From the IMG/VR virus record IMGVR_UViG_3300021964_000098, positions 1 to 52,320 of that record: a stretch of DNA of 52,320 nucleotides; one strand, 5' to 3'. Below are positions 4,071 to 52,320 of the stretch, in pieces (position 1 is the stretch's first letter; each line of letters begins with the position of its first letter). Origin of the DNA: a virus (taxonomy: Duplodnaviria; Caudoviricetes). A model generated the notes under the pieces. The model worked only from the letters and a program-made list of their open reading frames with translations, searched no databases and was not told the origin of the DNA. Position numbers and translations under genes: made by a program.

Positions 4071-4313
4071 ATGGATCAGTTAGAATTAGAAAAAATAATT
4101 AGTCAAGCTGCTCAAGAGGGAGCAAAGCAAGCACTAAAAGATATTGGGCTGTCAGACCAAGAAGCCTATGATGATGTAAAAGAGCTAAGAAATCTTTTAG
4201 ATGTTTGGAGGGCTACTAAGTCTACAGTAGGACAGACTATTGCTAGGATGCTTACTACCTCAATTTTAACTGCTTTGGCTATAGGCATTTGGATGTCTTG
4301 GGGTGTGGAATGA
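4071..4313 (+). CDS. DUF6127-like small membrane protein
   Basis: Pattern GAKQALKDIGL...DVKELRNLL...QT..R..T..L.AL.IGI recalled from this family; C-terminal TM helix. Confidence 0.55.
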   Translation: MDQLELEKIISQAAQEGAKQALKDIGLSDQEAYDDVKELRNLLDVWRATKSTVGQTIARMLTTSILTALAIGIWMSWGVE

Positions 4314-4992: not shown

Positions 4993-4997
4993 TATAG

Positions 4998-7900: not shown

Positions 7901-8048
7901 TACCTATGCGCGAACAGCCTACCAAAACGAACAACAACGACAAACTACTTTGTATGCAACTGCACTTTCAAATGACCCCGGAGAAGCCGGAAGCACAGAG
8001 TATGTAGATAAACTTATTGCAACTGTTGATAAGATGTATGAGGATTAA
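4998..8048 (+). CDS. Internal virion (ejection / DNA-pilot-like) protein, Q/A/N-rich coiled coil
   Basis: 1016 aa; Gly-Asn-Asp linker; C-terminal half is Q/N/A-rich with 11-residue periodicity; lies in the ejection-protein cluster. Confidence 0.7.
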   Translation: MAKRKKYQIGGRTDEFYYGEETEGRDIGIDPNLDLGTVNITPPPPGGGNGGDDGGNGGNGGDDGGNGGSPDLTTQVLQFAGREGGASNLDIANYITQIGADVNKVADAMGIDRERANTVFNALSDDKTADFVRYQEQNPNATNQQLAQFVKDTGADIGLVADALEIDRDVGLQMYRDALGSAGETEKVAETVVTGITSETPGTYRAPTVDVADYVQPPEVTKVDISAGVTPQSAIQQLNKFVDIPPPPAVTATQIQAATASVADAITKNQIDASQYEAALAEELNRTVPAIGTQRPPITVEEIKDISSRAQAATMGDVTAGLAQAADFTISPDAFVPGVTAADIRVAQTPEIEAQQREAITGTAGSGIEAQILETVNYQAAQTRAIKGTAAKGAAASMVAEVGELPDAVASAIVEDPANVEAIVDTQPVEIQAAVAALPNEALVSSQLETLLGGLEDGQIPTWARPAVDIVEQRLAQRGMEVSTVARDALFNAIIQTSLPIAESNAQALQQRAAQNLSNEQQAALQQQSSQMQLRLQNLANQQTSASQTAQMAQSMAQLQSQFRQDAALLSAQQAQQIRTQNLANRQRSAELNAQNQQASNAQNLSNEQQMELANLEAMNLTERENMTAENQARLAEFQVAADFISKNAAFKQQMELANLDADQQVRLANLTALNNASSDNLNAAQQTELANLNARMQTNLAQAQIAQSMGVAQLNADQQRAVENARMVANIDLTKFNADQQVQLANSQFMQTITLTDFNARQQAAMQNATALASLDLATVDQRTRVAIENANNFLQMDIANLSNAQQATILDQQMAQQRLLSDQSAQNSAAQFNASTEAQINQFNANLAAQIEQFNASQLNAMAQFNVTEQNRVAAINAGNEIDVQKFNNQLTSQLDQFNAQMDQQREIWNAQNAQAIEQSNIEWRRQANTINTAAENAANATAAQQAYNLSTQELANVWQQLRDDSTYARTAYQNEQQRQTTLYATALSNDPGEAGSTEYVDKLIATVDKMYED

Positions 8049-8050
8049 TT

Positions 8051-9088
8051 ATGGGATTTTTTAGTAAAGTTTTTAAAGGCGTAAAAAAAGTCTTTAAAAA
8101 GATTGGCAAGGGCATCAAAAAAGTTGCCGTAAAAGTTGGCAAGTTTATGAACGAGATTGGCGTTGTTGGTCAGATTGCTATGGCTTTTATACTTCCGGGT
8201 ATTGGTAGTGCACTAGCATCTACTTTAGGAAAGGTAGGAACATGGGCAGCAGCAGCTCTTGCTAATCCTGCTACTAACGCTTTGGTAAAAGGTGTTGCTC
8301 ATGTTGTTAATGGAGCTGCTAGATTTGCCGCAGGAGCAGGTAGAGTGTTTAACACTGTTACTAGTGCGGTTAAAAACTTTACAGGTGAAGTAGGTAAAAC
8401 ACTTCTTAACAAAATTCCGGGTATCAATGTTGAAGGAGCTGCTACAAATATCTTTGGGCAGGGAGGTGCATTAGAAGTAGCGGCTGGTAAAACTGTAGAA
8501 ACTTGGAACACTACTATAGGAAGTGCAGATTGGTGGAAAGATATTGGCAGATCTCCTGAAAATATACCTCCGGGTTTTACAGGGCCTCCAGAGCTACAGA
8601 GCGAATACACGCCGCTAAAAGCTACTGACGATCCTATGGCTAGAGTATTTACTGATCCAACAGATCCTAACTTTATAGCTGAAGGGGCTTATGGCGAGTT
8701 GCCTGCTGACTCTTCTTTGTTGCAAGGGCCTATGACTCCACAGGCTGAAGCATTTGTAGCTCCTGATATTCCTGCTTCAGTAGTAAGTGATGTAGCTGAA
8801 GATGTTGGTAAAGATTATCTTATCACAGAGCGTAGTTTAGCGGCGGCTGGGACAGAAGCAGTGAAGGCGGTTGGACAAAGCCTTATGGCTCCAGAGCAGC
8901 CTGAGTATGATTACAGAGGCGGTAGAGGAACAATTGTAGTTGCAGAGAATGCTTATGAAGTACAGCCCGGACAAGCCGGTACAATGTCTCAAATGCCAGC
9001 AGTAGGTTATGGTATGCCTATGATTCAGTATGATGCTTTATATAAACCAGCAGGAATGTATTCTAGAAGAATGCAAGGTCTAGTGTAA
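8051..9088 (+). CDS. Internal virion protein with cationic amphipathic N-terminus
   Basis: MGFFSKVFKGVKKVFKKIGKGIKKV followed by a Gly/Ala-rich hydrophobic segment; GAGG RBS. Confidence 0.7.
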   Translation: MGFFSKVFKGVKKVFKKIGKGIKKVAVKVGKFMNEIGVVGQIAMAFILPGIGSALASTLGKVGTWAAAALANPATNALVKGVAHVVNGAARFAAGAGRVFNTVTSAVKNFTGEVGKTLLNKIPGINVEGAATNIFGQGGALEVAAGKTVETWNTTIGSADWWKDIGRSPENIPPGFTGPPELQSEYTPLKATDDPMARVFTDPTDPNFIAEGAYGELPADSSLLQGPMTPQAEAFVAPDIPASVVSDVAEDVGKDYLITERSLAAAGTEAVKAVGQSLMAPEQPEYDYRGGRGTIVVAENAYEVQPGQAGTMSQMPAVGYGMPMIQYDALYKPAGMYSRRMQGLV

Positions 9089-14500: not shown

Positions 14501-17148
14501 GTAAGATGATTGAAGATCCGACAGGTAATGTTCCTAAGACTTTGGCTTCGGGTGTAATCATGACAGAAGTTGCTAGGTTTAATAACTGGGCAAGAAGTGG
14601 AGGACGCAGCGAAGAAGAAGGAGAGAACCCATATGCAGCAGCTATTTTAAGATGGGGCGGGGGAGGAACATACTTAGATATGTTTCGTAGGGCGCAGTTT
14701 GCAGCAAAAGATAACTACGCTTTATCAGTCCCTTTATCTGTTCTTGGCCCAGCAGCTCAAGATGTAACACAGCTTATTCAATACAGAGGCCCTGTAGAAT
14801 TTGCAGCGCGAAAGTCTCCGGGCTTTGGAGCTTTTGAGACTGTGTTCGGTAGAGAGTTTAGAGACAATTACACCAGTGCTGCTAGAAGAATGGATAAAGT
14901 TATCCAAGATATGTTTAGTGGCGAAGATCCTAGTCGCCTTAAATTCAGAAAGGGAGGTGAAGTTCTAGTACCTAATGCGCCTGAAGAACCTGATAAGCGC
15001 ATAGATCGTATGACGGGACTGCCTTATGACCAGCAAGCCGGAGGAGCTTTTGTAGACGAAGAAGAGCGTTTGGGCTTTGCTTTTGGTAGTACTGTTTCTA
15101 GATATGTTAGATCTGCTTTGTCTGATGCAGTAGGTAAGATTGCAGATAAAGGAGAAAACATTCCCTTTGATAGATTAATGAAGCGTCTTCAGGTTGAAGG
15201 TGTTAGAGCTGATGAGATTGAAGCTGCTGACATTATGAATCTTGTAGATGAAAAAGACATAGTTACTACACGTTCAGGTAATAGGGCTGTTACTCCCACG
15301 GGTTTAAGAAACGCAGAAGCCCGAAGGACTGATGTGTTTAAGCAAGAAGAAAGTACATATCTACAAGCCCAAGAAGAAGTAACTGAAGTGGCTGAAGATT
15401 TAGAAAAAGAAGTAGAAGTGTCGATTGCTGAAAGCGAGAATCTAGACAGGGCAATAGACGAAGAATTTGGAGATGATTATTTTGTAGAAGATTTAGAAAC
15501 ATTTGATCCAGAGGCAGAAGATCCTACATATGCGTACACGGGTAGAATGTTAGATACGGCTTTAGATCCTGAAAAGCCTTTAAGAGAAAGAACGGATGCA
15601 ATAAGTGAAGTTGAGAGAGTATTAAGAAAAAGCCCCGCAGAACTTAAAGAAATGTACACTGAGGTTGTTCCAGAAGATGCTGAGTTAAGTACGTATAGAA
15701 TTAATTATTATAGTGATCCTAGAGTTAGTAGACCTACTCAGTCCGGTCATTTTATAAAAGGCAGAGATTATCCTACGGATTTAAATTTTGTCTACTGGAC
15801 TAGAGGGGACGTTGCATCTGGAGATAAAACTATAACTGGAGGAGAAGCCTCTAGAGTTTTTGAAATTCAGTCAGACAGTACAGTTGCATTAGATCCTGAA
15901 AAATTAAGTCCTTATCAAAAAATACTAGAAGAATTAAATGAGCTGGATGATAAGATGGGCGATATAGAAGACTCTATTATGGGTGTAGATATGGAATTAG
16001 AACAGTTTGATATTGTCAGATCTTCGTCTTCTGAACGTGCCGTTGTTCCTCCTGACGCTGAAGAAGCTGTAAAAACATTAATAAAGAGAAATAATGAGTT
16101 AATGGACGAGTTAAAAGCTTCTAGAAAACAAGAGAAGGGCTTAGAATCAAAACTAAAAGATGCTGGTAAAAATATGACAGCATCAGAAGTTAAAAAAGAA
16201 CGAGATGAACTTTTCTTTGGTGGATCTAAAGTTTCTATAAATGTCTGGAAGACAGCAATTCATAACGAAATTATTAAAGCTAAAAAAGAAAATCTAGATG
16301 AAATACAATTTCTTATTGACGATAAACTAATAGAAAAGAACGGAGAACGGGTTACTGAGTTTATGTTTAGATCTCCAGAAATTCAAAAAGCCTATCAAAC
16401 TATAGTAGCTCCTTTAGTTATTAAGACTGCTAAAAAGATAGGAGCTAAGGTACAGCGTAAAGGTAAATACCTAGCTTTTGCATTACCCGCCACATTTACT
16501 TTACCGCTTTATGCCCAAGAGGAAGAAGACTTATCCACAGTAGCAACAGACATATCTCTAGGTATGGAACTAGATGAGGCTCTTGTTGCTAACAGAGACG
16601 GCTTTGCAGAAGGTGGTATGCTTGAAAAAGCTATAAAGTTTGCACTAGGAAGAGGTGCTGAAGCCTTAGGTTTTGGTGCAGAACAGCAACGCCAGCATGA
16701 AAAAGAAGTAGTAGCTCTTGTTAATGAAGCAGCCGAGAAAGGTTTTATCCCTGAACAATCCCGTATACCTACAGATGAAGCAGGGTTTGGAAAGTTCAGC
16801 GGCGCGGATGAAGAAGTCTTTAATGCTTTTAATCATGCTTACTTAGTTTACAAGCATGGCTCTAAGCTTAAAGATCCTTTGCTTCAAGGTAAAGAATATC
16901 TTCAAATGACATACTATCCTAATCCAGATACCGAAAAAGTTGATTTAATTAACAATGCTTTTGGTTCTAACTTGAGGAATATAGCTGGAGATGATGAAGA
17001 CGCAAAGCAAAAAATAGTTATGGGCTATTATAATACTCAAAGAAAACTAGAAGAAGGAAAGCCACTTGTATACGGAGAGGATCTTATATTTAATATAAAT
17101 GATCTGGAAAACATAGAGCCTCGTAGTGCTAGATTTAGACCGAGGTAG
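11599..17148 (+). CDS. Large internal virion / ejection protein with appended C-terminal domains
   Basis: 1849 aa; NYVPRMW motif seen in podovirus large core proteins; EIQSD-containing segment; terminal NAFNHAY...DLINN segment. Confidence 0.7.
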   Translation: MPIKRKTLRTSPEIIQANRDSYNSVDLSDYTISQKPRLDPNLQYLENNEDFQEDMELYMEYIASQDDNVVDQMLSGTLATDDWKEFMRDEDWRITSVIDRNMALKDAPEDVKQAYKRVRENWERADVEGYGEWIEAITDMGLDAVGDPVNLAMLLAIPFTGGGSAATAALAKEGAKKSAMQTIRRMAVSPTTTGIVEGGVWGGVDDYNRQNIEVATGMRNEFSNSDFAMSIGVGSLAGGLFGKAFGYFGNSRNAAKVERDIVPDNKALDKQTNNIAANDDEIAENVLEGSLPQSQEVMDAVSEIVNRLPLRSATFQNGVLNETKGFPVDFDIDDFADVDEIAKDLAEKLGGGEYTADEIADTIRQALVAAKRGNVSGEQLSDFVTARISRDVDTPAGETLPAAPDPSPGKEVARPIQNKLLFKIGRLANKLNSTVLAGKATDLISPYAKYSPTAAKLQRLLRYDSSLKLTGSVTPDETLGRDYFETLKENYGTFVTDFKRAYDPILVAAKGDTRQDMDDMVISALRGGTLPDDAPDAVKAIVPKLRKLFDDRAEALFMEEAPANYVPRMWKRSAIESREVEFKQLLMNEGYSSDEANGIIDSMLGKVENVGVIDSAGTGDTVFLMPRVLDKIADDNVYADFLENDLNKIVHEYGIQSARRISKLNVLGVRNKRDFQEIWIPRIEEELREAGLKRDTLMEQVGKDIGAVYSSITGEGVQRYGTGLQTASDVYTMTTRMATLPLATLSSLTEIFINISKAGFRNSFKGFAGAMNEGFGTIATKSKNLLADAGLTEPEIWREMQELGIAMDQAAGDVADRLGGEAISNSAIRKLNNGFFRANMLDQWTKFVQMTSYISGKNMISDNIAEIAAARGNKDSRRILRKKKELRELGVDIDQAMNWFDGGMKADDAFNKEIQRGAGRYTNEVILNPEAASGLKPLLHSNPKTSVLFQLMGYPAAFTNTILKGAARKMIEDPTGNVPKTLASGVIMTEVARFNNWARSGGRSEEEGENPYAAAILRWGGGGTYLDMFRRAQFAAKDNYALSVPLSVLGPAAQDVTQLIQYRGPVEFAARKSPGFGAFETVFGREFRDNYTSAARRMDKVIQDMFSGEDPSRLKFRKGGEVLVPNAPEEPDKRIDRMTGLPYDQQAGGAFVDEEERLGFAFGSTVSRYVRSALSDAVGKIADKGENIPFDRLMKRLQVEGVRADEIEAADIMNLVDEKDIVTTRSGNRAVTPTGLRNAEARRTDVFKQEESTYLQAQEEVTEVAEDLEKEVEVSIAESENLDRAIDEEFGDDYFVEDLETFDPEAEDPTYAYTGRMLDTALDPEKPLRERTDAISEVERVLRKSPAELKEMYTEVVPEDAELSTYRINYYSDPRVSRPTQSGHFIKGRDYPTDLNFVYWTRGDVASGDKTITGGEASRVFEIQSDSTVALDPEKLSPYQKILEELNELDDKMGDIEDSIMGVDMELEQFDIVRSSSSERAVVPPDAEEAVKTLIKRNNELMDELKASRKQEKGLESKLKDAGKNMTASEVKKERDELFFGGSKVSINVWKTAIHNEIIKAKKENLDEIQFLIDDKLIEKNGERVTEFMFRSPEIQKAYQTIVAPLVIKTAKKIGAKVQRKGKYLAFALPATFTLPLYAQEEEDLSTVATDISLGMELDEALVANRDGFAEGGMLEKAIKFALGRGAEALGFGAEQQRQHEKEVVALVNEAAEKGFIPEQSRIPTDEAGFGKFSGADEEVFNAFNHAYLVYKHGSKLKDPLLQGKEYLQMTYYPNPDTEKVDLINNAFGSNLRNIAGDDEDAKQKIVMGYYNTQRKLEEGKPLVYGEDLIFNINDLENIEPRSARFRPR

Positions 17149-17150: not shown

Positions 17151-17321
17151 GTGCACCGTTTAATTCTGATTGCTCTTTTACTTTCTTCCTGCTCAACAGC
17201 AACCTACGACTTCCCAATAGAGTTTCCTAATAGGATGCCTCAGGGATTGTTTGACAACAACCTCAGAGATTGTAGGTCACAGCCTCAATGCTCTGCGGAT
17301 CAACTATTTGATAGGTGGTAA
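17151..17321 (+). CDS. Small lipoprotein, 56 aa (not in ORF track)
   Basis: GTG start after GAGGT. MHRLILIALLLSSC lipobox, then STATYDFPIEFPNRMPQGLFDNNLRDCRSQPQCSADQLFDRW. Fills the gap exactly. Confidence 0.75.
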   Translation: MHRLILIALLLSSCSTATYDFPIEFPNRMPQGLFDNNLRDCRSQPQCSADQLFDRW

Positions 17322-17322
17322 T

Positions 17323-18624
17323 ATGAGAAAAACTTTGTTAGCTGCTTGTATAGGACTAGCTACAGCGGCTCAAGCCGATGATACATATGTTGATACTGTA
17401 GCAAGTATTATAAATAACAACTGTGTTGTTTGTCACAGAGAGGGCGGTATAGGCCCTATGTCTTTTGAGACTTATGAGCAGGTCAGACCTTGGTCACCTC
17501 TTATCTCATACAAAGTAGCTAACAGAGAAATGCCTCCTTATGCCTATGATCAACACATAGGAATTCAGAACCTTGAAGGGGATTGGAGACTATCACAGGA
17601 TCAGATAGATTCTGTTGTTAATTGGGCAAACTCTGGATCGCCTTATGGTGATTCTGACATAGTTGTCCAGCCTCCAAACCTCCCAAGTCTAGACTCTTGG
17701 AACTTTGAGCCTGAGTTTGGTGCGCCAGATCTTATTATTCCTTCTTCACCCTACGACATCCCTGCCAATGGTAATGACCTATGGAGCAAGGAGTTCGTAG
17801 ATCCTCAACTGGCTGAGTCACGCTGCATCAAAGCCGTACAGGTTAAGCCAAGAGGCGATGCAGCCGCTGTAGTACATCACGCTAATTCAGATGTATATGT
17901 ATATGACGATGAAGGTGAGCTTCAACAGTATGGTCAGTTGACTGAGTATGCTATGGGTAAGTGGGGAGAGCTTATGCCAAAGGGCGTATGCCGTACCTTT
18001 CCTGCTAACTCTTTAGTGCGTTGGGATATCCACATGTTCCCCGGCGGCGTAGGAGCTACAGCAGAAGGAGATATGATTGAAGATAATGTTGTAGAGATTG
18101 GTCTTTGGTTTCATGAAGAAGACTATGAAGCTAACAACGATGTCTATCAACAAGACCTAAGGCTATATCCTCTGCGCGAAGGCTATGAGAATGGCCATCT
18201 AATTATCCCTCCTAATGGCTATGCTATGACGCAGGGGTTTCACAGCTTTGATCACCCTGTGCGCATTGATAGTTTCCAACCCCACGGACACCTCCGTATG
18301 AATGCTGCGTCACTAGAGATATTTAATCCTATGACAGGACGCACCAAGTCAGTAAGTCAGATTTCTAACTGGAGTGCCACATGGCATCACAGCCATATCT
18401 ACGACCCCTTAGAGGCCCCTGTGTTGGCTGCTGGAGAGGTTCTAGTAATCAAGCAGTGGTATGATAATACCTCTGACAATCCCAACAACCCTGACCCAGA
18501 TCAGTGGGTGTATGGCGGCAGCAGGACGGGAGATGAAATGTCTCACGCTTGGATTGCTGTTACTCATCTAGACGATCAAGGTTACCAACAAATAATGGAA
18601 GAAAGATTTAATGGGGCTGATTGA
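17323..18624 (+). CDS. Secreted cytochrome-c / copper type II (PHM/DBH-like) monooxygenase
   Basis: ATG 17323 after AGGTGG; signal peptide ending AQA; CVVCH plus EMPP; VVHHA, DIHM, PHGHLR, GDEMS copper-ligand pattern. Confidence 0.8.
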   Translation: MRKTLLAACIGLATAAQADDTYVDTVASIINNNCVVCHREGGIGPMSFETYEQVRPWSPLISYKVANREMPPYAYDQHIGIQNLEGDWRLSQDQIDSVVNWANSGSPYGDSDIVVQPPNLPSLDSWNFEPEFGAPDLIIPSSPYDIPANGNDLWSKEFVDPQLAESRCIKAVQVKPRGDAAAVVHHANSDVYVYDDEGELQQYGQLTEYAMGKWGELMPKGVCRTFPANSLVRWDIHMFPGGVGATAEGDMIEDNVVEIGLWFHEEDYEANNDVYQQDLRLYPLREGYENGHLIIPPNGYAMTQGFHSFDHPVRIDSFQPHGHLRMNAASLEIFNPMTGRTKSVSQISNWSATWHHSHIYDPLEAPVLAAGEVLVIKQWYDNTSDNPNNPDPDQWVYGGSRTGDEMSHAWIAVTHLDDQGYQQIMEERFNGAD

Positions 18625-19024
18625 TTTACTTATAAAACATGAAGGCTTGAAGCTAGAGCCTTATCGTTGTACTTCAGACAAACTAACTATAGGCGTAGGA
18701 AGAAATCTAGAAGACTGTGGAATCACTGAAGAGGAGGCTATGTATCTTCTCAAGAATGATATCAAGAAATTTCATGAAGAACTAACCGAAAGGTTTTATT
18801 TCTACAGGTATCTAGAGGGGGCTAGAAAGGATGCTATGTTAAACATGGCATTTAATATGGGAGTGCCGAGGCTTGCTAACTTTGTAAAAGCTCTGGACTT
18901 TATGTCTCAGAGTAAGTACGACAAAGCAGCAGATGAGTTCTTAGACTCACGATGGGCCAAGCAGGTAGGCAACAGAGCCATAGAAGTTGCTCAGATGATA
19001 CGCACTAACAAATACCCCGACTAA
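18611..19024 (+). CDS. Endolysin, T4-lysozyme-like (GH24)
   Basis: HEG...YRCT...TIGVGRNL, NMAFNMG and DSRWAKQVGNRA motifs. Confidence 0.9.
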   Translation: MGLIDLLIKHEGLKLEPYRCTSDKLTIGVGRNLEDCGITEEEAMYLLKNDIKKFHEELTERFYFYRYLEGARKDAMLNMAFNMGVPRLANFVKALDFMSQSKYDKAADEFLDSRWAKQVGNRAIEVAQMIRTNKYPD

Positions 19025-37240: not shown

Positions 37241-38891
37241 GAACTACCTTACAGACGAGGAGGGTAATTTCGTTCTAAAGAAGGACGGAACTCCAAGACG
37301 CAAAGGTGGCAGACCTAAGGGTGCAAAGGGTAGAGGCTACAACTACCATTCAGAAACGAAAGCAAAGATACAGGCGCGGAGAGCTGTACGCAAAAAAGAA
37401 AAAGAAACAGAGCGTACAAGCATTAAACTCTCTCAGCAACGAGAAAAACTAAAAGCCTCTAAAGAAACTCTAAACAAACTAGATAATAATAACAAAAACA
37501 AAGTTATTACTGATGATGTTCTGTCTAAGGTTCCTAAAGCCTTGCGGGAAGAAGCTAACGACAATGTTATCTTCAAACCAAACGCAGGGCCACAGACAGA
37601 CTTCTTAGCAGCTCCTGAGAGGGACGTACTGTATGGTGGAGCAGCAGGGGGTGGTAAGTCCTATGCTATGCTCATAGATCCCCTCAGATATGCTCACAGG
37701 GCCTCTCATAGGGCCTTAATACTAAGACGGTCTATGCCAGAGCTACGAGAGCTAATAGACAAGTCACGAGAGCTGTATCCAAGAGCCTTTCCCGGCTGTA
37801 AGTATCGGGAGGTAGAAAAGCTTTGGAACTTCCCGTCAGGGGCTAAAGTAGAATTTGGATTCTTGGAACGAGATGCAGATGTATATCGTTATCAAGGACA
37901 AGCATATAGTTGGATAGGATTTGATGAGATTACTCACCTACCTACAGAATTTGGATGGAACTATCTGGCTTCGCGTTTACGAACTACAGATCCAGACATT
38001 GTACCTTATATGCGGTGTACAGCTAATCCCGGTGGTGTCGGCGCTCATTGGGTAAAGAAACGGTACATATTACCACACCCGCCCAATGAATCTTTTAAGG
38101 GTGAAGACGGTCTAACCAGAAAGTTTATACCAGCAAGATTAGATGACAATCCTTATCTTGCAGAAGATGGTCGTTATGAGGAGATGCTCAAGGCTCTCCC
38201 TGACATCCAGCGAAAACAATTACTAGAAGGTAATTGGGAAATCGCAGAGGGTGCTGCATTCACTGAGTTTGATACAGCAGCCCACGTAGTTACTCCTTTT
38301 GATATTCCAATAGGATGGGAAAGAATAAAAGGGATTGACTATGGTTATGCGTCAGAGAGTGCCTGTATATGGGGGACAGTTGATCCAACAGACGGCACTT
38401 TAATTATATATAGAGAGTTATACCGTAAAGGACTTACGGGCGAAGATCTTGGAAACATAATAGCTGAAATGGAAGCCCAAGATCCTTTTGCTGTACCCGG
38501 AGTTCTAGATACGGCAGCATGGGCTAAGACAGGTACAACAGGCCCAACTGTAGGCGAGTCGTTGATGCGCGTAGGTCACAAGCTACGAAGAGCAGATAAG
38601 AATCGTATACAAGGTAAGATACAAATTCACGAATACTTGAAGATACAACAAAGCGGTAGGCCGCGACTGCAAATATTTAATACTTGCCCTAACCTGATAC
38701 GTGAACTTCAAAGTATTCCTTTAGATCGGTCAAACCCAGAGGATGTGGATACTCACGCCCCTGACCACGCATATGATGCGTTGAGGTACTTGATAATGTC
38801 AAGGCCCCGAATAGCCGATCCACTAACAAGAATCAGACATATGCATCGTGAACAGGCATTCACGCCTTTAGATTCAGAGTTTGGTTATTGA
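37215..38891 (+). CDS. terL: Terminase large subunit
   Basis: GGAAGGGKS Walker A, IGFDE Walker B, TANPGG, GIDYG, DHAYDALRY. Confidence 0.95.
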   Translation: MEEWEKNPENYLTDEEGNFVLKKDGTPRRKGGRPKGAKGRGYNYHSETKAKIQARRAVRKKEKETERTSIKLSQQREKLKASKETLNKLDNNNKNKVITDDVLSKVPKALREEANDNVIFKPNAGPQTDFLAAPERDVLYGGAAGGGKSYAMLIDPLRYAHRASHRALILRRSMPELRELIDKSRELYPRAFPGCKYREVEKLWNFPSGAKVEFGFLERDADVYRYQGQAYSWIGFDEITHLPTEFGWNYLASRLRTTDPDIVPYMRCTANPGGVGAHWVKKRYILPHPPNESFKGEDGLTRKFIPARLDDNPYLAEDGRYEEMLKALPDIQRKQLLEGNWEIAEGAAFTEFDTAAHVVTPFDIPIGWERIKGIDYGYASESACIWGTVDPTDGTLIIYRELYRKGLTGEDLGNIIAEMEAQDPFAVPGVLDTAAWAKTGTTGPTVGESLMRVGHKLRRADKNRIQGKIQIHEYLKIQQSGRPRLQIFNTCPNLIRELQSIPLDRSNPEDVDTHAPDHAYDALRYLIMSRPRIADPLTRIRHMHREQAFTPLDSEFGY

Positions 38892-38904
38892 TATAGGTAA
38901 TAGT

Positions 38905-41088
38905 ATGGCTGATAAAAACTCAATAACAGATAACGCTAATAACGTCTATTTTCAAGATGTAGAGGGCGAGCAGGGTAAGACACTTAACCTTGAGGAGTCC
39001 CTTCACAATCAATTTACTGGCGTTATTTATGATCGTTATCAATCAGCCAAGGATGCTAGAGATCATGACGAAAAGCGTTGGATAACTGGCTATCATAATT
39101 ACCGTGGATTGTACCCCAAGCACTATAAGTTTAGAGAATCAGAAAAATCTAGAGTATTTGTAAAAGTAACTAAAACTAAAGTGCTTGCTGCTTTTGGTCA
39201 GCTAGTTGATGTAGTCTTTGGTTCCAATAAGCTCCCAATTGGAATATCTGAAACAAAGATGCCGGAAGGTGTAGCTGAGTACGCTCATCTAGACACGCAA
39301 AATCCGGTTCCCAGCATTGAGACTAGCTCGCCAGCCCCGGAGCCTAGCGCAACTAATCCTTACGATGTAGGGTATGCAGGTGACGGAAAACAGGTCTTAA
39401 ATGCCGGGGCAACCTATAATAAGGGAGAAACAGAAGATATAGATGCTGTGCTGAAGGATGTGTTGACTGATGGTGGCTCTGCTATCCCACAGTTTTACGA
39501 AACCAAGCCAGCACAAGAAGCCGCTAGACGCATGGAAAAACTTATCCATGATCAGATAGAAGAGTCTAAAGGATCTAGCGAGATACGTAATGCACTGTTT
39601 GAATGTGCGTTGTTTGGCACAGGTATTGTTAAAGGCCCATTTAATTTTAATAAAACTCTGAATCGTTGGGAAGAAAACGCAGAGGGTCAGAGAGAATACA
39701 ATCCAGTAGAAGTACGAGTACCCCGCATAGAGTTTGTTAGCATCTGGGATTTCTTTCCAGATCCTAACGCAACTAACATGGATGAATGCGAATACGCTTT
39801 CCATCGTCACAAGATGAACAAGTCACAAGTACGTGCTTTGGCCCGTATGCCTTATTTTGATAAGGATGCTATACGTGCTACTCTACAGATGGGGCCTAAC
39901 TACGAGCCGGAGCATTACGAACACGAACTAAAAGATGACCAACGCTCAGAAGACTATGGCTCCGGTCAGTACGAAGTCTTGGAGTATTGGGGCATCATGG
40001 ATGCTGAATATGCCAAGCAAGTTGGCATGGAGCTTCCTGAAGATACTGATGACTTAGACGAAGTACAAATAAACGCTTGGGTATGTAATGGTAATATACT
40101 CAGGGCTGTTGTTAATCCGTTTACGCCTCATCGTATTCCTTACAATGCTTTTCCTTATGAGCGTAATCCATACAGTTTCTTTGGCATTGGTGTTGCCGAA
40201 AACATGGATGACTCTCAAAAGATTATGAATGGTCATGCACGTATGGCTATTGATAACCTTGCCCTGTCAGGCTCTCTAGTATTTGATGTTGACGAGTCTT
40301 CTCTTGTGGGTGGTCAAAGCATGGAGATATATCCGGGGAAGATCTTTAAGCGTCAAGCTGGAGTACCCGGACAGGCTATTAATGGCGTAAAGTTTCCTAA
40401 TACATCCAATGAAAACATGATGATGTTTGATCGTTTCCGGCAGCTTGCAGACGAGCAAACAGGTATTCCTAGTTACTCACACGGGCAAACAGGTGTACAG
40501 AGCATGACACGTACCGCATCTGGTATGTCCATGCTTTTAGGTGCAGCCTCACTAAACATCAAAACAGTTATAAAAAATCTAGACGATTTTCTGTTGCGTC
40601 CTTTGGGCGAAGCTTATTATCAGTGGAATATGCAGTTTTTAGATAATAAACTAAATATAGAAGGAGATCTAGAAGTAAAAGCTACAGGTACTAACAGCCT
40701 GATGCAAAAAGAAGTACGTAGTCAACGCTTGACAATGTTCTTGCAAACAGCGCAAAATCCTTCAATTGCACCATTTATTAAAATTAACAAGCTTATCAGC
40801 GAACTGGCTTATTCATTAGAACTTGACCCAGAAGAACTATTGAATGATCCAGAAGAAGCCGCTGTGATGGCTAGAATCATAGGATTACAAAATGCTGGAC
40901 AAGGCACTGGTCAGGAGGCTCAAGCCGCTAGTGAACAACCCGGAGATGTGGGAGGCCCTGAAGGATTACCTCCAGAAGGCCAAGATGTCGGAGTTACGGG
41001 TACTGGCGGTGGCAACATCGGAACTGGAAATGTACCGCAGTCAGGGGAGAGTGAATTCTCTGGAACGCTTAGAGAAGTTGCGGGATAA
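38905..41088 (+). CDS. Portal protein
   Basis: Follows terL; ALFGTGIVK, VSIWDFFPDP, FFGIGV, RTASGMSML motifs; ATG 38905 after AGGT. Confidence 0.9.
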   Translation: MADKNSITDNANNVYFQDVEGEQGKTLNLEESLHNQFTGVIYDRYQSAKDARDHDEKRWITGYHNYRGLYPKHYKFRESEKSRVFVKVTKTKVLAAFGQLVDVVFGSNKLPIGISETKMPEGVAEYAHLDTQNPVPSIETSSPAPEPSATNPYDVGYAGDGKQVLNAGATYNKGETEDIDAVLKDVLTDGGSAIPQFYETKPAQEAARRMEKLIHDQIEESKGSSEIRNALFECALFGTGIVKGPFNFNKTLNRWEENAEGQREYNPVEVRVPRIEFVSIWDFFPDPNATNMDECEYAFHRHKMNKSQVRALARMPYFDKDAIRATLQMGPNYEPEHYEHELKDDQRSEDYGSGQYEVLEYWGIMDAEYAKQVGMELPEDTDDLDEVQINAWVCNGNILRAVVNPFTPHRIPYNAFPYERNPYSFFGIGVAENMDDSQKIMNGHARMAIDNLALSGSLVFDVDESSLVGGQSMEIYPGKIFKRQAGVPGQAINGVKFPNTSNENMMMFDRFRQLADEQTGIPSYSHGQTGVQSMTRTASGMSMLLGAASLNIKTVIKNLDDFLLRPLGEAYYQWNMQFLDNKLNIEGDLEVKATGTNSLMQKEVRSQRLTMFLQTAQNPSIAPFIKINKLISELAYSLELDPEELLNDPEEAAVMARIIGLQNAGQGTGQEAQAASEQPGDVGGPEGLPPEGQDVGVTGTGGGNIGTGNVPQSGESEFSGTLREVAG

Positions 41089-41113: not shown

Positions 41114-41342
41114 AAATATGTCTTTAATGATATTGGACGCATTAGCAGCTAAATACGAAGCTGATATGCATGGGCTACAAGTAAACATAGCAAATTATTT
41201 TTCTAATGCTGTGGGTGTAGCTGAACATCCAGATATTGTAGAAGAAGTAGATAAACTGATTGAACAAGTTGCGACAGCCGAAGAAAAATTAAAAATTGTT
41301 AATGAAATTTATGAAGTAGAAAAAGGTAATTTAGATGTCTAA
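41094..41342 (+). CDS. Conserved hypothetical phage protein
   Basis: AL..KYEA......NI..YF.N.VGVAEHPDIV.E.DKL motif. Confidence 0.7.
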   Translation: MILPKSRNMSLMILDALAAKYEADMHGLQVNIANYFSNAVGVAEHPDIVEEVDKLIEQVATAEEKLKIVNEIYEVEKGNLDV

Positions 41343-41508
41343 GAGCAGAGTGAACGAGGCTGGTAATTATACTAAGCCCACAATGCGAAAGAATCTTTTT
41401 AATAAAATTAAAGCTGCTGGTAAAGGTGGTAAACCCGGACAGTGGTCAGCGCGTAAAGCCCAGATGCTTGCTAAAGAATACAAAGCCAAAGGCGGCGGTT
41501 ACAAGTGA
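41335..41508 (+). CDS. Small basic protein, 57 aa, N-terminal half of a DUF5872-like domain (not in ORF track)
   Basis: NYTKP.MRK...GKGGKPGQWSARKAQMLAKEYKAKGGGY; AAGGT RBS. Confidence 0.75.
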   Translation: MSKSRVNEAGNYTKPTMRKNLFNKIKAAGKGGKPGQWSARKAQMLAKEYKAKGGGYK

Positions 41509-41583: not shown

Positions 41584-42552
41584 ATGACATTAAAAAAGTC
41601 TCAGCAATCTCTTAAAGATTGGACATCTCAGAAGTGGAGAACCAAAAGCGGTAAGCCTTCCACTCAAGGCTCTGAAGCTACAGGTGAAAGGTATCTGCCT
41701 GAAAAAGCTATCAAGGCTATGTCTAGTTCTGAATATGCAGCAAGTACAAAAAAGAAAAGAGAAGATACTGCAAAAGGAAGACAGCATTCTAAGCAGCCTG
41801 AAAAAGCTGCGGAAACAGCACGTAAATACAGGAACACAGGTGGTATTGTGAACAAAGCTAAATTTAAAACTGTAATGGAAGAATTTGGAGCAGGTAAATT
41901 AAAGTCTAGCTCTGGCGATACCGTAACTTCTAGAGATCAAGCTCTTGCAATTGCTTATGCTCAATCTAGAGCCGCCAAGCAAATGGGTGGTTTAATGGAG
42001 GCTGCAAAACAACAACAGCCTTTGTTTAGAATGGCGGGAGGTGGGTCTATGATGGTTCCTACTGAAGGCGTTCCTCAAGATACCTACCCAAACATACCAC
42101 CCGAAGAAATGGCAGAAGCCAAAGCTTCACAGCTCCCTGATGAACAGATGGAGCAAGACTATTTTGGTTATGTAATCAATGAAACACTTGATCCTACCGA
42201 ACAAGAATATTTAAAGAATGCTCTAGAATCAGACCCACAGCTTAGTGCTATTATAGACAAAGTTGTGATGACTGCTTCTGAGTTTTCTGGGGCCGGAGAA
42301 GTTGAAGGCCCCGGAACTGGTGTATCGGACTCAATACCCGCTAGATTATCTGACGGAGAGTTTGTATTCACTAAAAAAGCTACCGATCAATTAGGTGCTG
42401 ACAACCTCCAAGTTATGATGGACGAGGCTGAACGTGCTTATGATGGTGGCTTAATGAGTCGGCCTTCTGATACCACACAAACAGCTTTAACTGACGAAGA
42501 AAAGATTCAGCGTCAAATGGCTGGAGCAAACAGAATGCCGAGTATTCGTTAA
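41584..42552 (+). CDS. Modular head-region protein: DUF5872-like half, DUF6496-like domain and GPGTGxSDSIPARLSDGEFV domain
   Basis: SQQSLKDWT.QKW..ERYLP; KFKTVMEEFGAGKLKSSSG..VTSRDQALAIA; GEVEGPGTGVSDSIPARLSDGEFVFT. Confidence 0.7.
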   Translation: MTLKKSQQSLKDWTSQKWRTKSGKPSTQGSEATGERYLPEKAIKAMSSSEYAASTKKKREDTAKGRQHSKQPEKAAETARKYRNTGGIVNKAKFKTVMEEFGAGKLKSSSGDTVTSRDQALAIAYAQSRAAKQMGGLMEAAKQQQPLFRMAGGGSMMVPTEGVPQDTYPNIPPEEMAEAKASQLPDEQMEQDYFGYVINETLDPTEQEYLKNALESDPQLSAIIDKVVMTASEFSGAGEVEGPGTGVSDSIPARLSDGEFVFTKKATDQLGADNLQVMMDEAERAYDGGLMSRPSDTTQTALTDEEKIQRQMAGANRMPSIR

Positions 42553-42646
42553 CACGGCTACCTTGAAGGAACAAGCCCCTATCAGTCTGACGAGACATTT
42601 AGAATAGGCTACCTTGTAGACAACAAGCCCCGTTTGGAGAAGTAAC

Positions 42647-43486
42647 ATGACTGTTGCAGAAAAACTAGAGGAACAAGAAGCAAATCCTTATAACATGAAG
42701 AAAGATTGGCACAAAGGCGAAACTCCCCGCATGGAGAGTGCTGATGGCCTTTTCTTTGCACCTGAACCTTCTAAGGCCACCTCCAGCGAAGAAGCTGAAG
42801 CCCCTGAAAAAAAAGAGTCTAAGGATGTAAATTATAAGAAACGCTATGACGATCTAAAGAAGCATTACGATAGTAAAGTTTCTGAATTTAAACAGCGTGA
42901 GCAAGAACTGTTGGCCGAAGCAAAAACAAATGCTCCCCAGTACCAAGCTCCTAAAACTGTTGAAGAGATAGAAGCTTTCAGGAAAAAGAATCCTGATCTG
43001 TATGAAACGGTAGAGACTGTAGCTCACTTTCAGAACGAACAGCAACTGGCAGATATACGCCAAGAGCTAGTTTCACTGAAGCAACGTGAAGCAGACATAG
43101 CCAAGAAAGAAGCTGAAGTTGAGTTGCGTCAAAGGCATCCCGACTTTGAGGACATTCGGGGTAATGAAAAGTTTCATGAATGGGCCAAAGCTCAACCGGA
43201 TCAAATACAGGATTGGATTTATAATAATCCTAATAATGCTGGTTTAGCTAGTAAAGCGATTGATTTGTATAAGATAGAAAATAATATTACTGCACAGCCA
43301 ACCAAAAGGAAGTCTGTATCGCAAGGAAGTGCAGCAGATATGGTTTCTACTAAAACGAAATCCATTGACACTAAACAACCTAAGATATGGACTGAACGGG
43401 AAATTGCTAAAATGTCCGTAACTGAGTTTGATAAATATCAAGAAGAAATTAATCAAGCAATTAGTGAAGGACGAGTAATTAAATAA
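42647..43486 (+). CDS. Capsid scaffolding protein
   Basis: Immediately before the capsid gene; YKKRYDDLK.H coiled coil, HPDF, C-terminal I..A..EGR; GGAG RBS. Confidence 0.8.
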   Translation: MTVAEKLEEQEANPYNMKKDWHKGETPRMESADGLFFAPEPSKATSSEEAEAPEKKESKDVNYKKRYDDLKKHYDSKVSEFKQREQELLAEAKTNAPQYQAPKTVEEIEAFRKKNPDLYETVETVAHFQNEQQLADIRQELVSLKQREADIAKKEAEVELRQRHPDFEDIRGNEKFHEWAKAQPDQIQDWIYNNPNNAGLASKAIDLYKIENNITAQPTKRKSVSQGSAADMVSTKTKSIDTKQPKIWTEREIAKMSVTEFDKYQEEINQAISEGRVIK

Positions 43487-43512
43487 TTTGTCTTTTATTG
43501 AGGTAATTAAAA

Positions 43513-44502
43513 ATGGCTTATAACCAATCCGATCAGTATTTTGAGCCGAGTACGGATACTGATGCTAACTTTGCGAACTCCGTAGCGGGTCAGAACAATT
43601 CATTCTTCCTTCCTGCTATTTATAGCAAGGCGGTACTGAATTTCTTCCGTAAGGCTTCTGTAGCCGAGGCAATCACTAACACTGATTATGCCGGGGAGAT
43701 TTCCGCTTACGGTGATTCTGTAAAGATCATCAAAGAACCTACCATCACTGTCTACCAGTATGAACGTGGTCAGGACGTAGCTTCAACTAAATTGACCGAC
43801 CAAGAGGTAACTCTGGTTGTTGATACTGCGAATGCTTTTAAATTCATCGTAGATGACATTGAGAGCAATATGTCTCACGTTAACTTCCGCGAAGTAGCTG
43901 CATCTTCTGCTGCTTACTCTTTGCGTGATGCTTTTGACGAAGGCGTAATCGCTACTATGTTTGCTGGCGTTCCTGCTTCAAGCCCAAATCACATTCTGGG
44001 TTCTGACAGTGCTACTGACCTTGCTGCTGGTACTTTTGACGGTGCTGGTAATCTTGACATTGGCTTTGGAGCTTCTGAGCATGATCCAATTGACGTTCTT
44101 TCACACATGGCCCGTCTGCTTGACGAGCAAAATGTTCCTGAAGAAGGCCGTTGGTTCCTTGCAAATCCAGAGTTCTATGAGCAGCTTGTACAAAGCAACT
44201 CTAAGCTCTTGTCTGTAGATTACAATGCTGGTCAAGGTTCAATCCGTAATGGCTTGGTATCTTCTGGCAAGCTACGTGGATTTGATATGTACAAGACTAA
44301 CAACATTGCAGCGACTACTAATGCCGCTGGTAAGTGTCTGGCTGGTCACATGTCATCTACCTGTACTGCTCAGACTATTGTTAACACTGAAGTAATTCGT
44401 GATCCAAGCAGCTTTGGTGACATTGTACGTGGCCTCCATGTTTATGGAGCCAAAGTACTGCGTCCAGAAGCTCTGGTATCCGCATTCTACGGTATTGACT
44501 AA
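43513..44502 (+). CDS. Major capsid protein
   Basis: FLPAIYS..VL.FFR, NTDY.GEI...GD.V.I, RGLHVYG.KVLRPE; GAGGT RBS; followed by a terminator. Confidence 0.9.
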   Translation: MAYNQSDQYFEPSTDTDANFANSVAGQNNSFFLPAIYSKAVLNFFRKASVAEAITNTDYAGEISAYGDSVKIIKEPTITVYQYERGQDVASTKLTDQEVTLVVDTANAFKFIVDDIESNMSHVNFREVAASSAAYSLRDAFDEGVIATMFAGVPASSPNHILGSDSATDLAAGTFDGAGNLDIGFGASEHDPIDVLSHMARLLDEQNVPEEGRWFLANPEFYEQLVQSNSKLLSVDYNAGQGSIRNGLVSSGKLRGFDMYKTNNIAATTNAAGKCLAGHMSSTCTAQTIVNTEVIRDPSSFGDIVRGLHVYGAKVLRPEALVSAFYGID

Positions 44503-44509
44503 GATTATC

Positions 44510-44539
44510 GGGGGTCTGAAATATGGCCCCCTTTAATTT
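44510..44539 (+). terminator. Rho-independent terminator after the capsid gene
   Basis: GGGGGTC-TGAAATAT-GGCCCCC-TTTAATTT. Confidence 0.8.
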
Positions 44540-44552
44540 ATGGAGTTTATAA

Positions 44553-44723
44553 GTGCCTCAAATTGGAAGCGAACAAAACCCCGTTAGATTTAACGTAAAC
44601 AACAAAGTTAAAATCCGTGCTAAATATTATAGACACGAAGATAAGAAAAAAGCTGACGAAAATTATGATAGGATTTTTAGAAATCTTGATAACCCTGTAA
44701 ATCATAGAGAGGAAAAAAAATGA
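44553..44723 (+). CDS. Small basic protein, 56 aa (not in ORF track)
   Basis: GTG after GGAG; MPQIGSEQNP...ENYDRIF... Confidence 0.6.
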   Translation: MPQIGSEQNPVRFNVNNKVKIRAKYYRHEDKKKADENYDRIFRNLDNPVNHREEKK

Positions 44724-44869
44724 TGGATTACGGCAAAAAGAAAATGATGGGCGGTGGTTATAATAAATATAACAAAGGCGGTAAAGCTAACGGAAACAAA
44801 ATGGCTCGCCGTGAATACAGCAAAGGCGGTTCTGTTAGTAGTGCTATGAAAACTGCCAAACCTTGCTAA
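44720..44869 (+). CDS. Small basic protein with three GG motifs, 49 aa (not in ORF track)
   Basis: MMDYGKKKMMGGGYNKYNKGGKANGNKMARREYSKGGSVSSAMKTAKPC; GAGG RBS, ATGA coupling. Confidence 0.7.
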   Translation: MMDYGKKKMMGGGYNKYNKGGKANGNKMARREYSKGGSVSSAMKTAKPC

Positions 44870-44870: not shown

Positions 44871-45017
44871 ATGAAAGTTCAAGCCCCTGAAGGTTACCAC
44901 TGGATGAAGAGTGGTAAAAGCTACAAACTTATGAAAGACCCTAAAGATGGCTACAAATCTCACCGGGGTGCTTCAAAGTCTGCTAACTTTGAAATTCAAA
45001 AGGTTCATAAAAAATAA
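44871..45017 (+). CDS. Small basic protein, 48 aa (not in ORF track)
   Basis: MKVQAPEGYHWMK...HRGASKSANFEIQKVHKK; TAATG coupling to the next gene. Confidence 0.65.
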   Translation: MKVQAPEGYHWMKSGKSYKLMKDPKDGYKSHRGASKSANFEIQKVHKK

Positions 45018-50914: not shown

Positions 50915-52320
50915 ATGAGTAAAGCAAGAGATATAGCAGATAGCGCAGCTACAATTAATGCTCTAGACGGTGTTACTGCTACAGGAACAGAATTAAATAT
51001 TCTTGATGGGGTTACCGCAACTACTGCTGAACTTAACATCCTTGATGGTGTTATAGCAACCACAGCAGAATTAAATTATGTGGATGGTGTTACGTCTAAT
51101 TTACAAACGCAACTAGACAACATCTCAGTAACTTCAGGCACTCTTACCAAGACATTCGCACAGGATGAAGTGGCTACTATTACTTTGTCTAGCAGTATTA
51201 CTACGCCCGTAGTATCTGTGACCAAAGAAGTGGCTCAGACAGGAACTACCAATAATGCGTGGGATGTTAATTCTACTTCAGAGAACTACACACGTTTGGA
51301 CTCTGCGACTGCGACTACTTTGGATTTTGATACTTATGATGTTAGCACAGGTTCTTTTGTAGACAGCTTTTCTGTTGCTTCACAAGATGACAATCCTACG
51401 GGACTAGCTTTCAGTGCTGACGGCACAAAAATGTACATAACTGGCAGAACAAATGACAATGTATTTCAATACGCTTTGAGTACAGCTTTTGATGTCAGCA
51501 CTGCGTCCTATACGCAATCATTTGATGTCTCGTCACAAGCAAGCCAACCATCAGGTCTAGCTTTTAATACTGACGGTACCAAGATGTTTGTAGTAGATTT
51601 TAACGATGACGATGTAAATGAATATGCCTTGACTACAGGTTTTGATATTAGCACTGCATCTTATACGCAAAATTTTTCAGTGGCTTCGCAAGAAACAGTC
51701 CCGCACGACATTGCCTTTAATAATGATGGAACTAAGATGTTTATTTGTGGGAATGGCGGCGTAGAAGTTAATGAATATGCCCTGACTACTGGGTTTGATA
51801 TATCTACTGCATCATTTACAACAAACTTTTCGGTAAGCGCACAAGAGGCAAACCCTAGAGGTCTAGCATTTAGCGCCGATGGCACAAAAATGTTTGTTTG
51901 CGGCACAACTGGACAGGATGTTAATGAATATGCTTTGACTACCGGATTTGACATATCTACTGCATCCTACACTCAGAATTTTAGTGTATCAGCTCAAGAC
52001 ACAGCACCTAAATCAGTTAAATTCAATACTGATGGCACTAAGATGTTTATTCTTGGTGATACAGATGATGACGTATACGAATATACGTTATCGCTTAGTA
52101 AGGTGGTTTTAGGCTCTGGCTCATTTGCATCTGCTGATGTAGGTAAAACCATTGAAGCTAACAATGGTGCGTTTGTTTTAACTTCTACTGCTGGCGCTGT
52201 ATCTCAAACCACAGCACCCACTTCATACGCTCAAGTAGCTTCAGGCTCTTGGGAGATGTATGCCGTTGTATTTAACACGACTGATGGTGATTTGGAGTTG
52301 AGTGGCATAACAACGGGTCA
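50915..52320 (+). CDS. Tail fibre / receptor-binding protein, N-terminal part, second allele (open to window end; not in ORF track)
   Basis: GGGAG RBS; MSKARDIAD..., ELNILDGV repeats, then five 51-aa propeller repeats; no stop before the window end. Confidence 0.85.
   Translation, partial: MSKARDIADSAATINALDGVTATGTELNILDGVTATTAELNILDGVIATTAELNYVDGVTSNLQTQLDNISVTSGTLTKTFAQDEVATITLSSSITTPVVSVTKEVAQTGTTNNAWDVNSTSENYTRLDSATATTLDFDTYDVSTGSFVDSFSVASQDDNPTGLAFSADGTKMYITGRTNDNVFQYALSTAFDVSTASYTQSFDVSSQASQPSGLAFNTDGTKMFVVDFNDDDVNEYALTTGFDISTASYTQNFSVASQETVPHDIAFNNDGTKMFICGNGGVEVNEYALTTGFDISTASFTTNFSVSAQEANPRGLAFSADGTKMFVCGTTGQDVNEYALTTGFDISTASYTQNFSVSAQDTAPKSVKFNTDGTKMFILGDTDDDVYEYTLSLSKVVLGSGSFASADVGKTIEANNGAFVLTSTAGAVSQTTAPTSYAQVASGSWEMYAVVFNTTDGDLELSGITTG

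Follow-up and report, generated by a model that had tools for sequence, protein, structure and literature searches.

Why does the head module of a short-tailed phage hold a small protein that carries a C-terminal signature of siphophage tape measures? The question is raised by the gene at 41584 of IMG/VR virus record IMGVR_UViG_3300021964_000098, a complete record (CheckV completeness 100) whose 52,320 bases are the window analysed here. A preliminary description of the window had noticed a double-glycine (GG) motif, R-x-x-[FYMKR]-x-x-G-G-x-[VLM], recurring in late proteins, and had taken the C-terminus of the 41584 product, here called T, for a processing domain that reads the motif as a cleavage or capsid-loading tag. 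The supposed domain is an element shared with tape-measure proteins, where GG flanks it as well, and nothing supports the view that T is a protease. We tentatively favour, with somewhat less than even confidence, a reading of T as a non-enzymatic, virion-internal pilot protein, associated with the portal or the channel and bearing exchangeable N-terminal cargo modules.

The genes that frame the locus, and the element in question, are the following:
38881 to 41088, + strand: portal gene (Pfam SU10_portal, 5.2e-27), context.
41584 to 42552, + strand: gene for the modular post-portal protein T, 322 amino acids (aa); an open reading frame (ORF) with conserved gene order and a large family.
42280 to 42456, + strand: tape-measure-type unit of T, consisting of a degenerate FSGAG flank, GPGTGVSDSIPARLSDGEFV, a helix and an AYDGGLM flank (PHROG, PDB and phage-record matches).
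42647 to 43486, + strand: scaffold-like gene (phrog_13678, of unknown function, 5.1e-70), context; always between the T and capsid genes.
43513 to 44502, + strand: major capsid gene (phrog_267 major head protein, 3.1e-70), context.

The invariant stretch GPGTGVSDSIPARLSDGEFV, of the form GPGTGxSDSIPARLSDGEFV, occupies residues 242-261 of T. It matches five PHROG tape-measure families (6.1e-8 to 6.4e-5) and three tape-measure chains in the PDB, 8zdo (1.8e-8), 8rk3 and 8iyk, the chains being those of Douge gp16, JBD30 gp46 and lambda gpH; a PDB profile search with alignment A2 of the family returned nothing beyond the same three chains. Aligned by hhalign with lambda gpH, T scores 94% probability over 26 columns, and a 77-aa query retrieved 513 phage records, almost all of them annotated tape measures, from phages of Pseudomonas, Mycobacterium, Gordonia, Vibrio, Arthrobacter and Burkholderia. 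The preliminary description had stated that the stretch typically follows FAxGG in tape-measure proteins, and these comparisons bear it out: [FYA]xxGG stands directly before the stretch, and a helix and then a second [FY]xxGG come after it. Douge, JBD30, lambda, DSL-LC04, OhShagHennessy, Kp4852-3 and BS-TP3 all carry GG beside the unit, on a single flank or on both, and in lambda gpH the sequence KFHFATGG...GIVHRGEFVFTKEATSRIGVGNLYRLMRGYATGGYVG comes straight after a Gly-rich region. The T family itself, represented by 322 distinct core-bearing proteins, has YDGG or FDGG downstream in 285 and a degenerate upstream FSGAG in 245. The consensus of the unit is [FY]xxGG, GPGTGxSDSIPAxLSxGEFV, a helix and [FY]xGG.

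In siphophage tape measures, as in T, the succession of GG, GPGTGxSDS[IM]PAxLSxGE[FY]V, helix and second GG lies near the C-terminus with a terminal helix after it, at residues ~725-790 of lambda gpH (within gpHC), 1019-1066 of JBD30 gp46, and 959-995 and 1408-1447 of Douge gp16, which carries two copies of the unit. The part of JBD30 matched by the T unit is the region 1022-1066, described in the accessible part of the JBD30 report as a predicted two-helix and hairpin hook, a baseplate anchor after cleavage (PMC11445458). T differs from tape measures in being only 322 aa long, in having variable basic N-terminal modules and no long helical ruler, and in that its gene belongs to the head module of a phage with a short tail and does not neighbour genes for a tail tube and chaperones. 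By eye, the last helix of lambda gpH looked like the helix at the C-terminus of T, a likeness that neither BLASTP nor hhalign detected and that we do not retain. Literature searches on the motif in tape measures turned up no paper describing this ~65-residue element.

Since GG flanks the stretch on both sides in tape measures, the GG motif and the supposed domain form one unit, and since the motif stands there in cis, beside the stretch, no separate tag read in trans is called for. At the invariant residues several synonymous codons occur (Arg as AGA, CGT or CGA; Ser256 as TCN or AGY) and thus selection acts on the protein. In both AlphaFold monomer models, one of full-length T and one of residues 164-322, the invariant stretch is coil, with a predicted local distance difference test (pLDDT) value below ~57, and the neighbouring helices are confident; as modelled, this is typical of segments that order on a partner.

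The location of the gene is equally constant. The portal and adaptor of the window match SU10 families (5.2e-27 and 2e-13), the closest named phages are the HMO-2011-type marine podophages (Pelagibacter HTVC104P, 103P and 115P, and Roseobacter CRP phages), and judged by its sequence the window phage is an HMO-2011-type podophage with SU10-type portal and adaptor. Phages of this type make up a dominant and widely distributed marine viral group, according to the portions of PMC9038755 that were available. The + strand carries the late genes, which span 36.6-52.3 kb and continue over 0-19 kb, and the - strand carries the replication genes (19-36 kb). The order terminase, portal, small ORFs, T, scaffold-like, capsid, small basic ORFs, adaptor is kept in 31 of the 31 loci of at least 9 kb that contain the core of T (30 IMG/VR loci and HTVC104P, gp82 to gp79), which agrees with the earlier placement of the 41584 gene between portal and scaffold, with the reservation that "scaffold-like" is a function taken from gene position and composition alone. 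By this gene order the 41584 gene is a conserved head-module gene and no odd insert.

Relatives of T are numerous: of 7995 proteins scored in a word-indexed search, 6461 reached E<=1e-3, and the last 114 residues of T used as query gave 4336 cluster representatives. Family members are 139 to 854 aa long among those listed. Among the 322 core-bearing proteins, the variable part ahead of the invariant stretch is 44-769 residues long and the part behind it 41-177, and it is from this spread and from alignments A1, A2 and A3 that we conclude that the N-terminus is variable and the C-terminal ~170 residues are conserved.

Does the conserved part hide a protease, as the preliminary description proposed? 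In that proposal the GG motifs are cleavage or loading tags, the GPGT-SDS stretch of T is the protease or reader, and cargo is loaded and released by it. Several observations speak for such a role: copies of the motif mark module boundaries and make up most of some small proteins, basic GG stretches open the 4998 protein and HTVC104P gp61, Ser, Asp, Glu and Arg residues are invariant in the stretch and Ser256 is kept across TCN and AGY codons. Moreover, the cleavage of lambda gpH to gpH* still lacks an assigned catalyst and an exact site, as far as the consulted part of PMC12617516 goes. The genome also offers no other protease: as the preliminary description had noted for head proteases, none was recognised in the 64 ORFs of the window (none among the 59 scanned with Pfam), and six-frame scans of the whole record for the HK97-type Peptidase_S78 (PF04586), the T4 gp21-type S77 (PF03420) and the lambda gpC-type S49 (PF01343) gave 0 matches at E<=1.

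Examination of T itself, however, argues against the proposal. Pfam and NCBIfam searches with the 41584 protein returned no peptidase family at E values up to 10. The 29 invariant columns of A2 include Ser248, Asp249, Ser256, Asp257 and Glu259 (Lys265 is nearly invariant) and neither a His nor a Cys; no Cys or His is invariant or nearly so in A1, A2 or A3, so the hallmark of the cysteine proteases of the C39, C5 and C63 families is absent there. The stretch amounts to ~25 residues of predicted coil and not to a globular domain, and its motif is its own cis flank in tape measures. Fold comparison gave no match to a protease: a BFVD search with the full model listed only low template-modelling (TM) scores, mostly to unnamed phage proteins, Foldseek against the PDB with the 164-322 model returned nothing at E<=0.001, and the best hit of the wide VIA-align search (Z 4.8) was to generic helices, only model residues 14-78 being really tested. 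In all of these searches no protease was listed, with the limit that the invariant stretch itself is poorly modelled. In the ESM Atlas the nearest clusters to T are unnamed viral proteins, with a crAss cargo-protein family at 0.82 as a lead only, and a homotrimer prediction for residues 205-322 scored 0.00 which, run without controls, counts neither way.

Three further resemblances were considered and dropped: that of SDS...GE[FY]V to the serine box of S24/S26 Ser-Lys peptidases and that of the GEFV-helix part to LysM, neither of which has Pfam support, and that to encapsulin-type cargo-loading peptides; the models contain no such folds. The Gly-Gly maturation and processing systems to which the motif had been likened, adenain, African swine fever virus (ASFV) pS273R and the C39 peptidases, share with this system only the Gly-Gly in a short recurring motif; these enzymes work with a catalytic cysteine, and in the T core neither Cys nor His is invariant. 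In the motif studied here a hydrophobic or aromatic residue is conserved three residues before the first Gly, a spacing that probably differs from that of the adenain, pS273R and C39 sites.

Capsids built on a scaffold commonly need no protease, and to find none in this genome is ordinary for a capsid that uses a separate scaffold-like protein. The inference from a "prohead-protease slot" falls too: the post-portal position is also that of MuF/gp7-type internal proteins, as set out in the accessible part of PMC5512222. We therefore abandon the processing domain and regard the protease or reader model as very improbable.

The architecture of T puts the motif at module edges. The protein consists of small basic N-terminal modules, an acidic helical core, the tape-measure unit and a C-terminal helix. 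Its parts other than the unit are:
41584 to 41850, + strand: N-terminal basic module, residues 1-89, isoelectric point (pI) 10.2, ending in RKYRNTGGIV (phrog_14910, 3.7e-30).
41857 to 41997, + strand: DUF6496-like helical module, residues 92-135, ending in RAAKQMGGLM (Pfam DUF6496 and AlphaFold).
42025 to 42051, + strand: junction FRMAGGGSM, from the variable N-terminus to the conserved core (G153 and G154 invariant in A1).
42100 to 42291, + strand: part of the acidic helical core, residues 173-236 (AlphaFold helices with pLDDT ~76-95; conserved in A2 and A3).
42493 to 42549, + strand: C-terminal helix and conserved tail, ..M..ANRMPSIR (helix 304-315 in both models; M312, P319 and S320 conserved).

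The first module is also found as a stand-alone gene of 81-100 aa in thousands of marine phage contigs, in CRP roseophages including CRP-345, in HMO-2011 and as gp57 of HTVC104P. The stand-alone copies end just ahead of the GG, and a 100-aa variant runs on as ..TGGLI.SAM...KPC, the same tail as that of the 49-aa ORF at 44720. The second module scores 18.8 bits against DUF6496 in the whole protein and 22.7 bits as an excised piece, where the gathering cut-off is 24; a precomputed PF20106 label is attached to 4 of 120 listed relatives of T. Its pLDDT is 92-95 over residues 91-120 and 87 over residues 121-130. The confident helices of T are residues 91-135 and 173-236, and the modelled helices ahead of GG 86-87 and of GG 288-289 stop 1-2 residues short of it.

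Relatives P0016, P0020 and P0021 have no DUF6496-like module: in A1 it is missing from junction to junction. In 72 distinct relatives a junction of the form ..[RK]xxKAEGGS[LM]M.P.E.. repeatedly links modules, and in A1 and these relatives together whole modules are gained or lost exactly between GG junctions. The earlier remark that the motifs of the 41584 protein fall at domain boundaries was thus well founded. The claim of modular cargo holds in part: the variable N-terminus is modular and cargo-like, and the processing domain that was to release the cargo is without support. Among the 322 proteins, the variable N-termini draw on a small set of modules, such as the EF-hand/dockerin-like DLTGDGKVTQADVLKGRGVF in 91, a module of the ..FEYEGRSYNT.. 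type in 18 and MHRMPDGSMM in 17.

A conserved junction between exchangeable modules could also be read as a site of polyprotein-like processing, in which a host protease or an unrecognised phage protease would cut at ..AEGGS[LM]M.P.E, the tape-measure unit would only target the precursor, and the small basic modules would be freed inside the head or in the infected cell. Modules fused in T are indeed separate genes elsewhere that end right at the junction, the junction is far better conserved than the modules it joins, and polyvalent phage proteins have been proposed to be processed (in the part of PMC5512222 that was consulted). Recombination joints or structural hinges would, however, equally give a conserved junction; the codon variety at the junction means selection on the protein and leaves its purpose unsaid; and no protease candidate was found. 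We consider this processing unlikely.

CRP-345 offers a diverged case. Its gp62, a 1246-aa post-portal protein encoded at 4841-8581 on the - strand of L095, shares junction-like and cargo-like stretches with the T family and carries at its N-terminus a diverged copy of the unit, MYQKGG...RDDIDARLSAGEWV; tblastn gave no match to the T core in CRP-345. A stretch resembling the ..FEYEGRSYNT.. module is also found in gp62, as are a run of 23 glycines followed by CC near the C-terminus and long Thr/Ser/Lys-rich low-complexity tracts.

How widely does the GG motif occur outside T? The copies that the preliminary description had quoted are all present in the translations where it had placed them. The 41584 protein has RKYRNTGGIV (residues 80-89, from 41821), RAAKQMGGLM (129-138, from 41968), FRMAGGGSM (148-156, from 42025) and ERAYDGGLM (283-291, from 42430), and the 11599 protein has RLKFRKGGEV (residue 1113), RLGFAFGSTV and RDGFAEGGML (residue 1666). 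The further motif-bearing features are:
5007 to 5033, + strand: RKKYQIGGR, residues 4-12 of the 1016-aa 4998 protein (from the translation).
14935 to 15096, + strand: conserved island of ~54 residues in the 1849-aa internal-virion-type protein, from RLKFRKGGEV to RLGFAFGSTV.
16594 to 16623, + strand: RDGFAEGGML of the 1849-aa protein (from the translation).
41335 to 41508, + strand: 57-aa basic ORF ending in KEYKAKGGGYK (phrog_17747, 8.8e-36), conserved just upstream of T.
44720 to 44869, + strand: 49-aa basic Met/Gly/Lys-rich ORF (pI 10.1) with three motif copies and an ..AMKTAKPC tail.

Chance expectation was obtained from 300 within-protein shuffles of the 30 late and 34 early ORFs of the window. 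The strict pattern R..[FYMKR]..GG.[VLM], which was defined on the same window data as used for its test, occurs 6 times in the late ORFs against 0.06 expected (0 of 300 shuffles reach 6) and 0 times in the early ones; one of the 6, RINYLIGGNM of ORF 17251, falls upstream of the likely true start of that ORF (MRKTLLAAC...). The loose pattern [RK]..[FYMKR]..GG gave 10 late matches against 1.28 expected and 1 early match against 0.58. The comparison was repeated on 38 late and 50 early greedily called ORFs of HTVC104P, the final ~1 kb of the record being left out, where the loose pattern occurs 7 times in late ORFs against 1.69 expected (0 of 300 shuffles) and 0 times in early ones against 0.47, and the strict pattern 2 times against 0.08. 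The HTVC104P matches fall in counterparts of the same genes, namely the post-portal gp81, the small post-capsid ORF, a small basic ORF, the giant gp54 and the N-terminus of gp61. The enrichment in late over replication proteins, which the preliminary description had suggested checking, holds in the window and, for the loose form, also in the diverged HTVC104P. Among 699 distinct GG windows, Arg takes position -6 in 43% and Met or Leu takes position +3 in 53%, and Lys, Ala, Tyr, Arg, Met or Phe is found at position -3; given these preferences the pattern as first written is a fair summary.

The 49-aa ORF at 44720, the start and stop of which abut the adjacent genes, belongs to a family that most related loci have at a fixed place, after the capsid gene and ahead of the adaptor gene, its number of GG repeats varying; being a positionally conserved peptide family, it is a real gene. 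The 57-aa ORF at 41335 has counterparts in CRP-345 and HTVC104P. HTVC104P gp61, the positional counterpart of the 4998 protein, begins with MLTKIKRIRRNTGGEAR and mirrors the start of the latter, MAKRKKYQIGGR; relatives of the N-terminal 200 aa of the 4998 protein were not found, and the conservation of the motif there comes from gp61 alone. A 201-aa query containing the island of the 1849-aa protein found 8 relatives, and in 4 of these nothing but the island still matches.

Some features of the small ORFs may be recorded here. A tail ..GG.[IV]..AM...KP[CN], with a terminal Cys or Asn, is common to the small post-capsid ORFs and the 100-aa variants of the first module. A 56-aa basic ORF (44553-44723, + strand; MPQIGSE.NP..) is conserved right after the capsid gene, and a conserved 48-aa basic ORF (44871-45017, + strand; MKVxAPxGYHWMK..) immediately precedes the adaptor gene in most related loci.

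Orphan copies of the motif might be docking peptides that link or load internal proteins by attaching to the tape-measure unit or to the interior of the capsid, perhaps through strand addition, with no cleavage involved. The enrichment of the motif in presumed internal proteins of two genomes would suit such docking; the upstream flank in T is degenerate (FSGAG, in 215 of 322 proteins) where tape measures have a full FAxGG, and the invariant stretch is disordered alone in the models. Tape measures bear the motif and yet sit outside capsids, however, and docking is in our estimation a rather improbable explanation.

We return to the pilot protein. From the observed architecture, synteny, enrichment and tape-measure relation we infer a virion location, ejection and any binding along the following lines. 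The conserved C-terminal ~170 residues would place T at the portal or in the tail channel. Much as a podophage pilot protein or a C-terminal tape-measure fragment does, it would leave together with the DNA or in front of it, and the N-terminal modules would travel along as cargo. The GG motif, which forms both flanks of the tape-measure unit, would be a conserved module edge, helix end or hinge; it would spread by module shuffling among internal virion proteins, which we propose as the cause of its enrichment in late genes, and it need not be a cleavage site. The proteins that bear the motif are those expected inside the virion: T, the small basic ORFs, and the 1016-aa and 1849-aa proteins of the ejection-type cluster.

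A number of points weigh against this reading. The available portions of the HMO-2011 report (PMC9038755) hold no proteomic or structural datum that puts T or its relatives in the virion. The similarity to tape measures spans only ~26-65 residues, and the region of the unit is unresolved in the Douge, JBD30 and lambda structures. T has no match to MuF or another head-protein family in Pfam. The GG at 135-136 lies inside a helix in the full-length model, where the idea of a helix end fails, and a tag for targeting or cleavage would be just as compatible with the enrichment in late proteins.

T might, finally, serve assembly only, without ejection: working with the scaffold-like protein at the portal, it would nucleate the prohead or set its size, then be lost or left behind, and deliver nothing. 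In every locus its gene has the portal gene on one side and the scaffold-like gene on the other, the core of T is acidic and helical, and tape measures are themselves assembly rulers, all of which suits this role. The highly variable, swappable N-terminal modules are hard to square with pure assembly, and the shared element belongs to the end of the tape measure that is described, in the parts of the sources consulted, as leaving the virion first. We judge an assembly-only role somewhat unlikely, and keep the pilot protein with its cargo modules as the preferred interpretation.

Among known systems, T may be compared with MuF/SPP1 gp7 and the polyvalent proteins, for which variable effectors carried by MuF/gp7-type head proteins are described in the consulted part of PMC5512222 (Iyer et al. 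2017). As in those, the T gene is next to the portal gene and the protein has a conserved anchor and swappable parts, and packaging and delivery with the DNA are presumed for both. In contrast to MuF/gp7, there is no Phage_Mu_F Pfam match in the 41584 protein, HTVC104P gp81 or CRP-345 gp62, and T has no recognisable enzymatic effector or peptidase, its modules being small basic domains; the conserved part is C-terminal in T and N-terminal in CRP-345 gp62. The window phage also resembles SU10, with its ejection proteins gp20-24 (as presented in the accessible part of PMC9509320), in its portal and adaptor types and in that the motif-bearing 1016-aa and 1849-aa proteins are encoded within an ejection-type gene cluster. 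We found no sequence relation of T to the characterised podophage ejection proteins, and the virion location of T is a prediction. T would appear to combine two known kinds of part, a tape-measure C-terminal element and a post-portal cargo carrier.

A conserved head-module gene of HMO-2011-type phages, annotated only as hypothetical, thereby becomes a candidate pilot or cargo-delivery protein, a small protein of a short-tailed phage with the C-terminal signature of tape measures. The comparison also defines a ~65-residue element that hundreds of tape measures share, lambda gpH among them, and since the element adjoins a lambda cleavage of unknown catalyst and site, its function could be probed in lambda itself. 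Because the unit lies just downstream of the region where lambda gpH is cleaved, a processing role stays alive as a bold reading, to which we give a slender chance: GG, GPGTGxSDSIPAxLSxGEFV, helix and GG might together form a self-contained processing or strand-exchange device, common to tape measures and the internal proteins of podophages, that cuts or clasps GG junctions. If so, it would account for the cleavage of gpH to gpH* in the Gly-rich region just upstream of the unit, and marine podophages would use it to release or link small basic cargo modules bearing orphan GG motifs.

Other genes of the late arm deserve a brief mention. The listed TTG start of ORF 17251-18624 (+ strand) is probably wrong: an ATG 24 codons downstream gives the signal- or lipobox-like start MRKTLLAACIGLATAAQA. 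Its protein has a CVVCH site (CxxCH, haem-c-like) near residue 60 and no Pfam or PHROG match, and may be a phage-encoded secreted haem-binding protein. A gene transfer agent (GTA)-type holin with three transmembrane segments (PF11351, 2.4e-21) is encoded at 4289-4717 (+ strand) within the structural gene block, and a phage lysozyme gene (PF00959, 8.9e-16) lies at 18611-19024 (+ strand), at the end of the late arm and distant from the holin gene. The two open-ended ORFs at the ends of the record, 50915-52318 and 2-3376 (both + strand), match phrog_17210 alike and contain Kelch/beta-propeller-like repeats; they are probably one gene of ~1590 aa split at the linearisation point.

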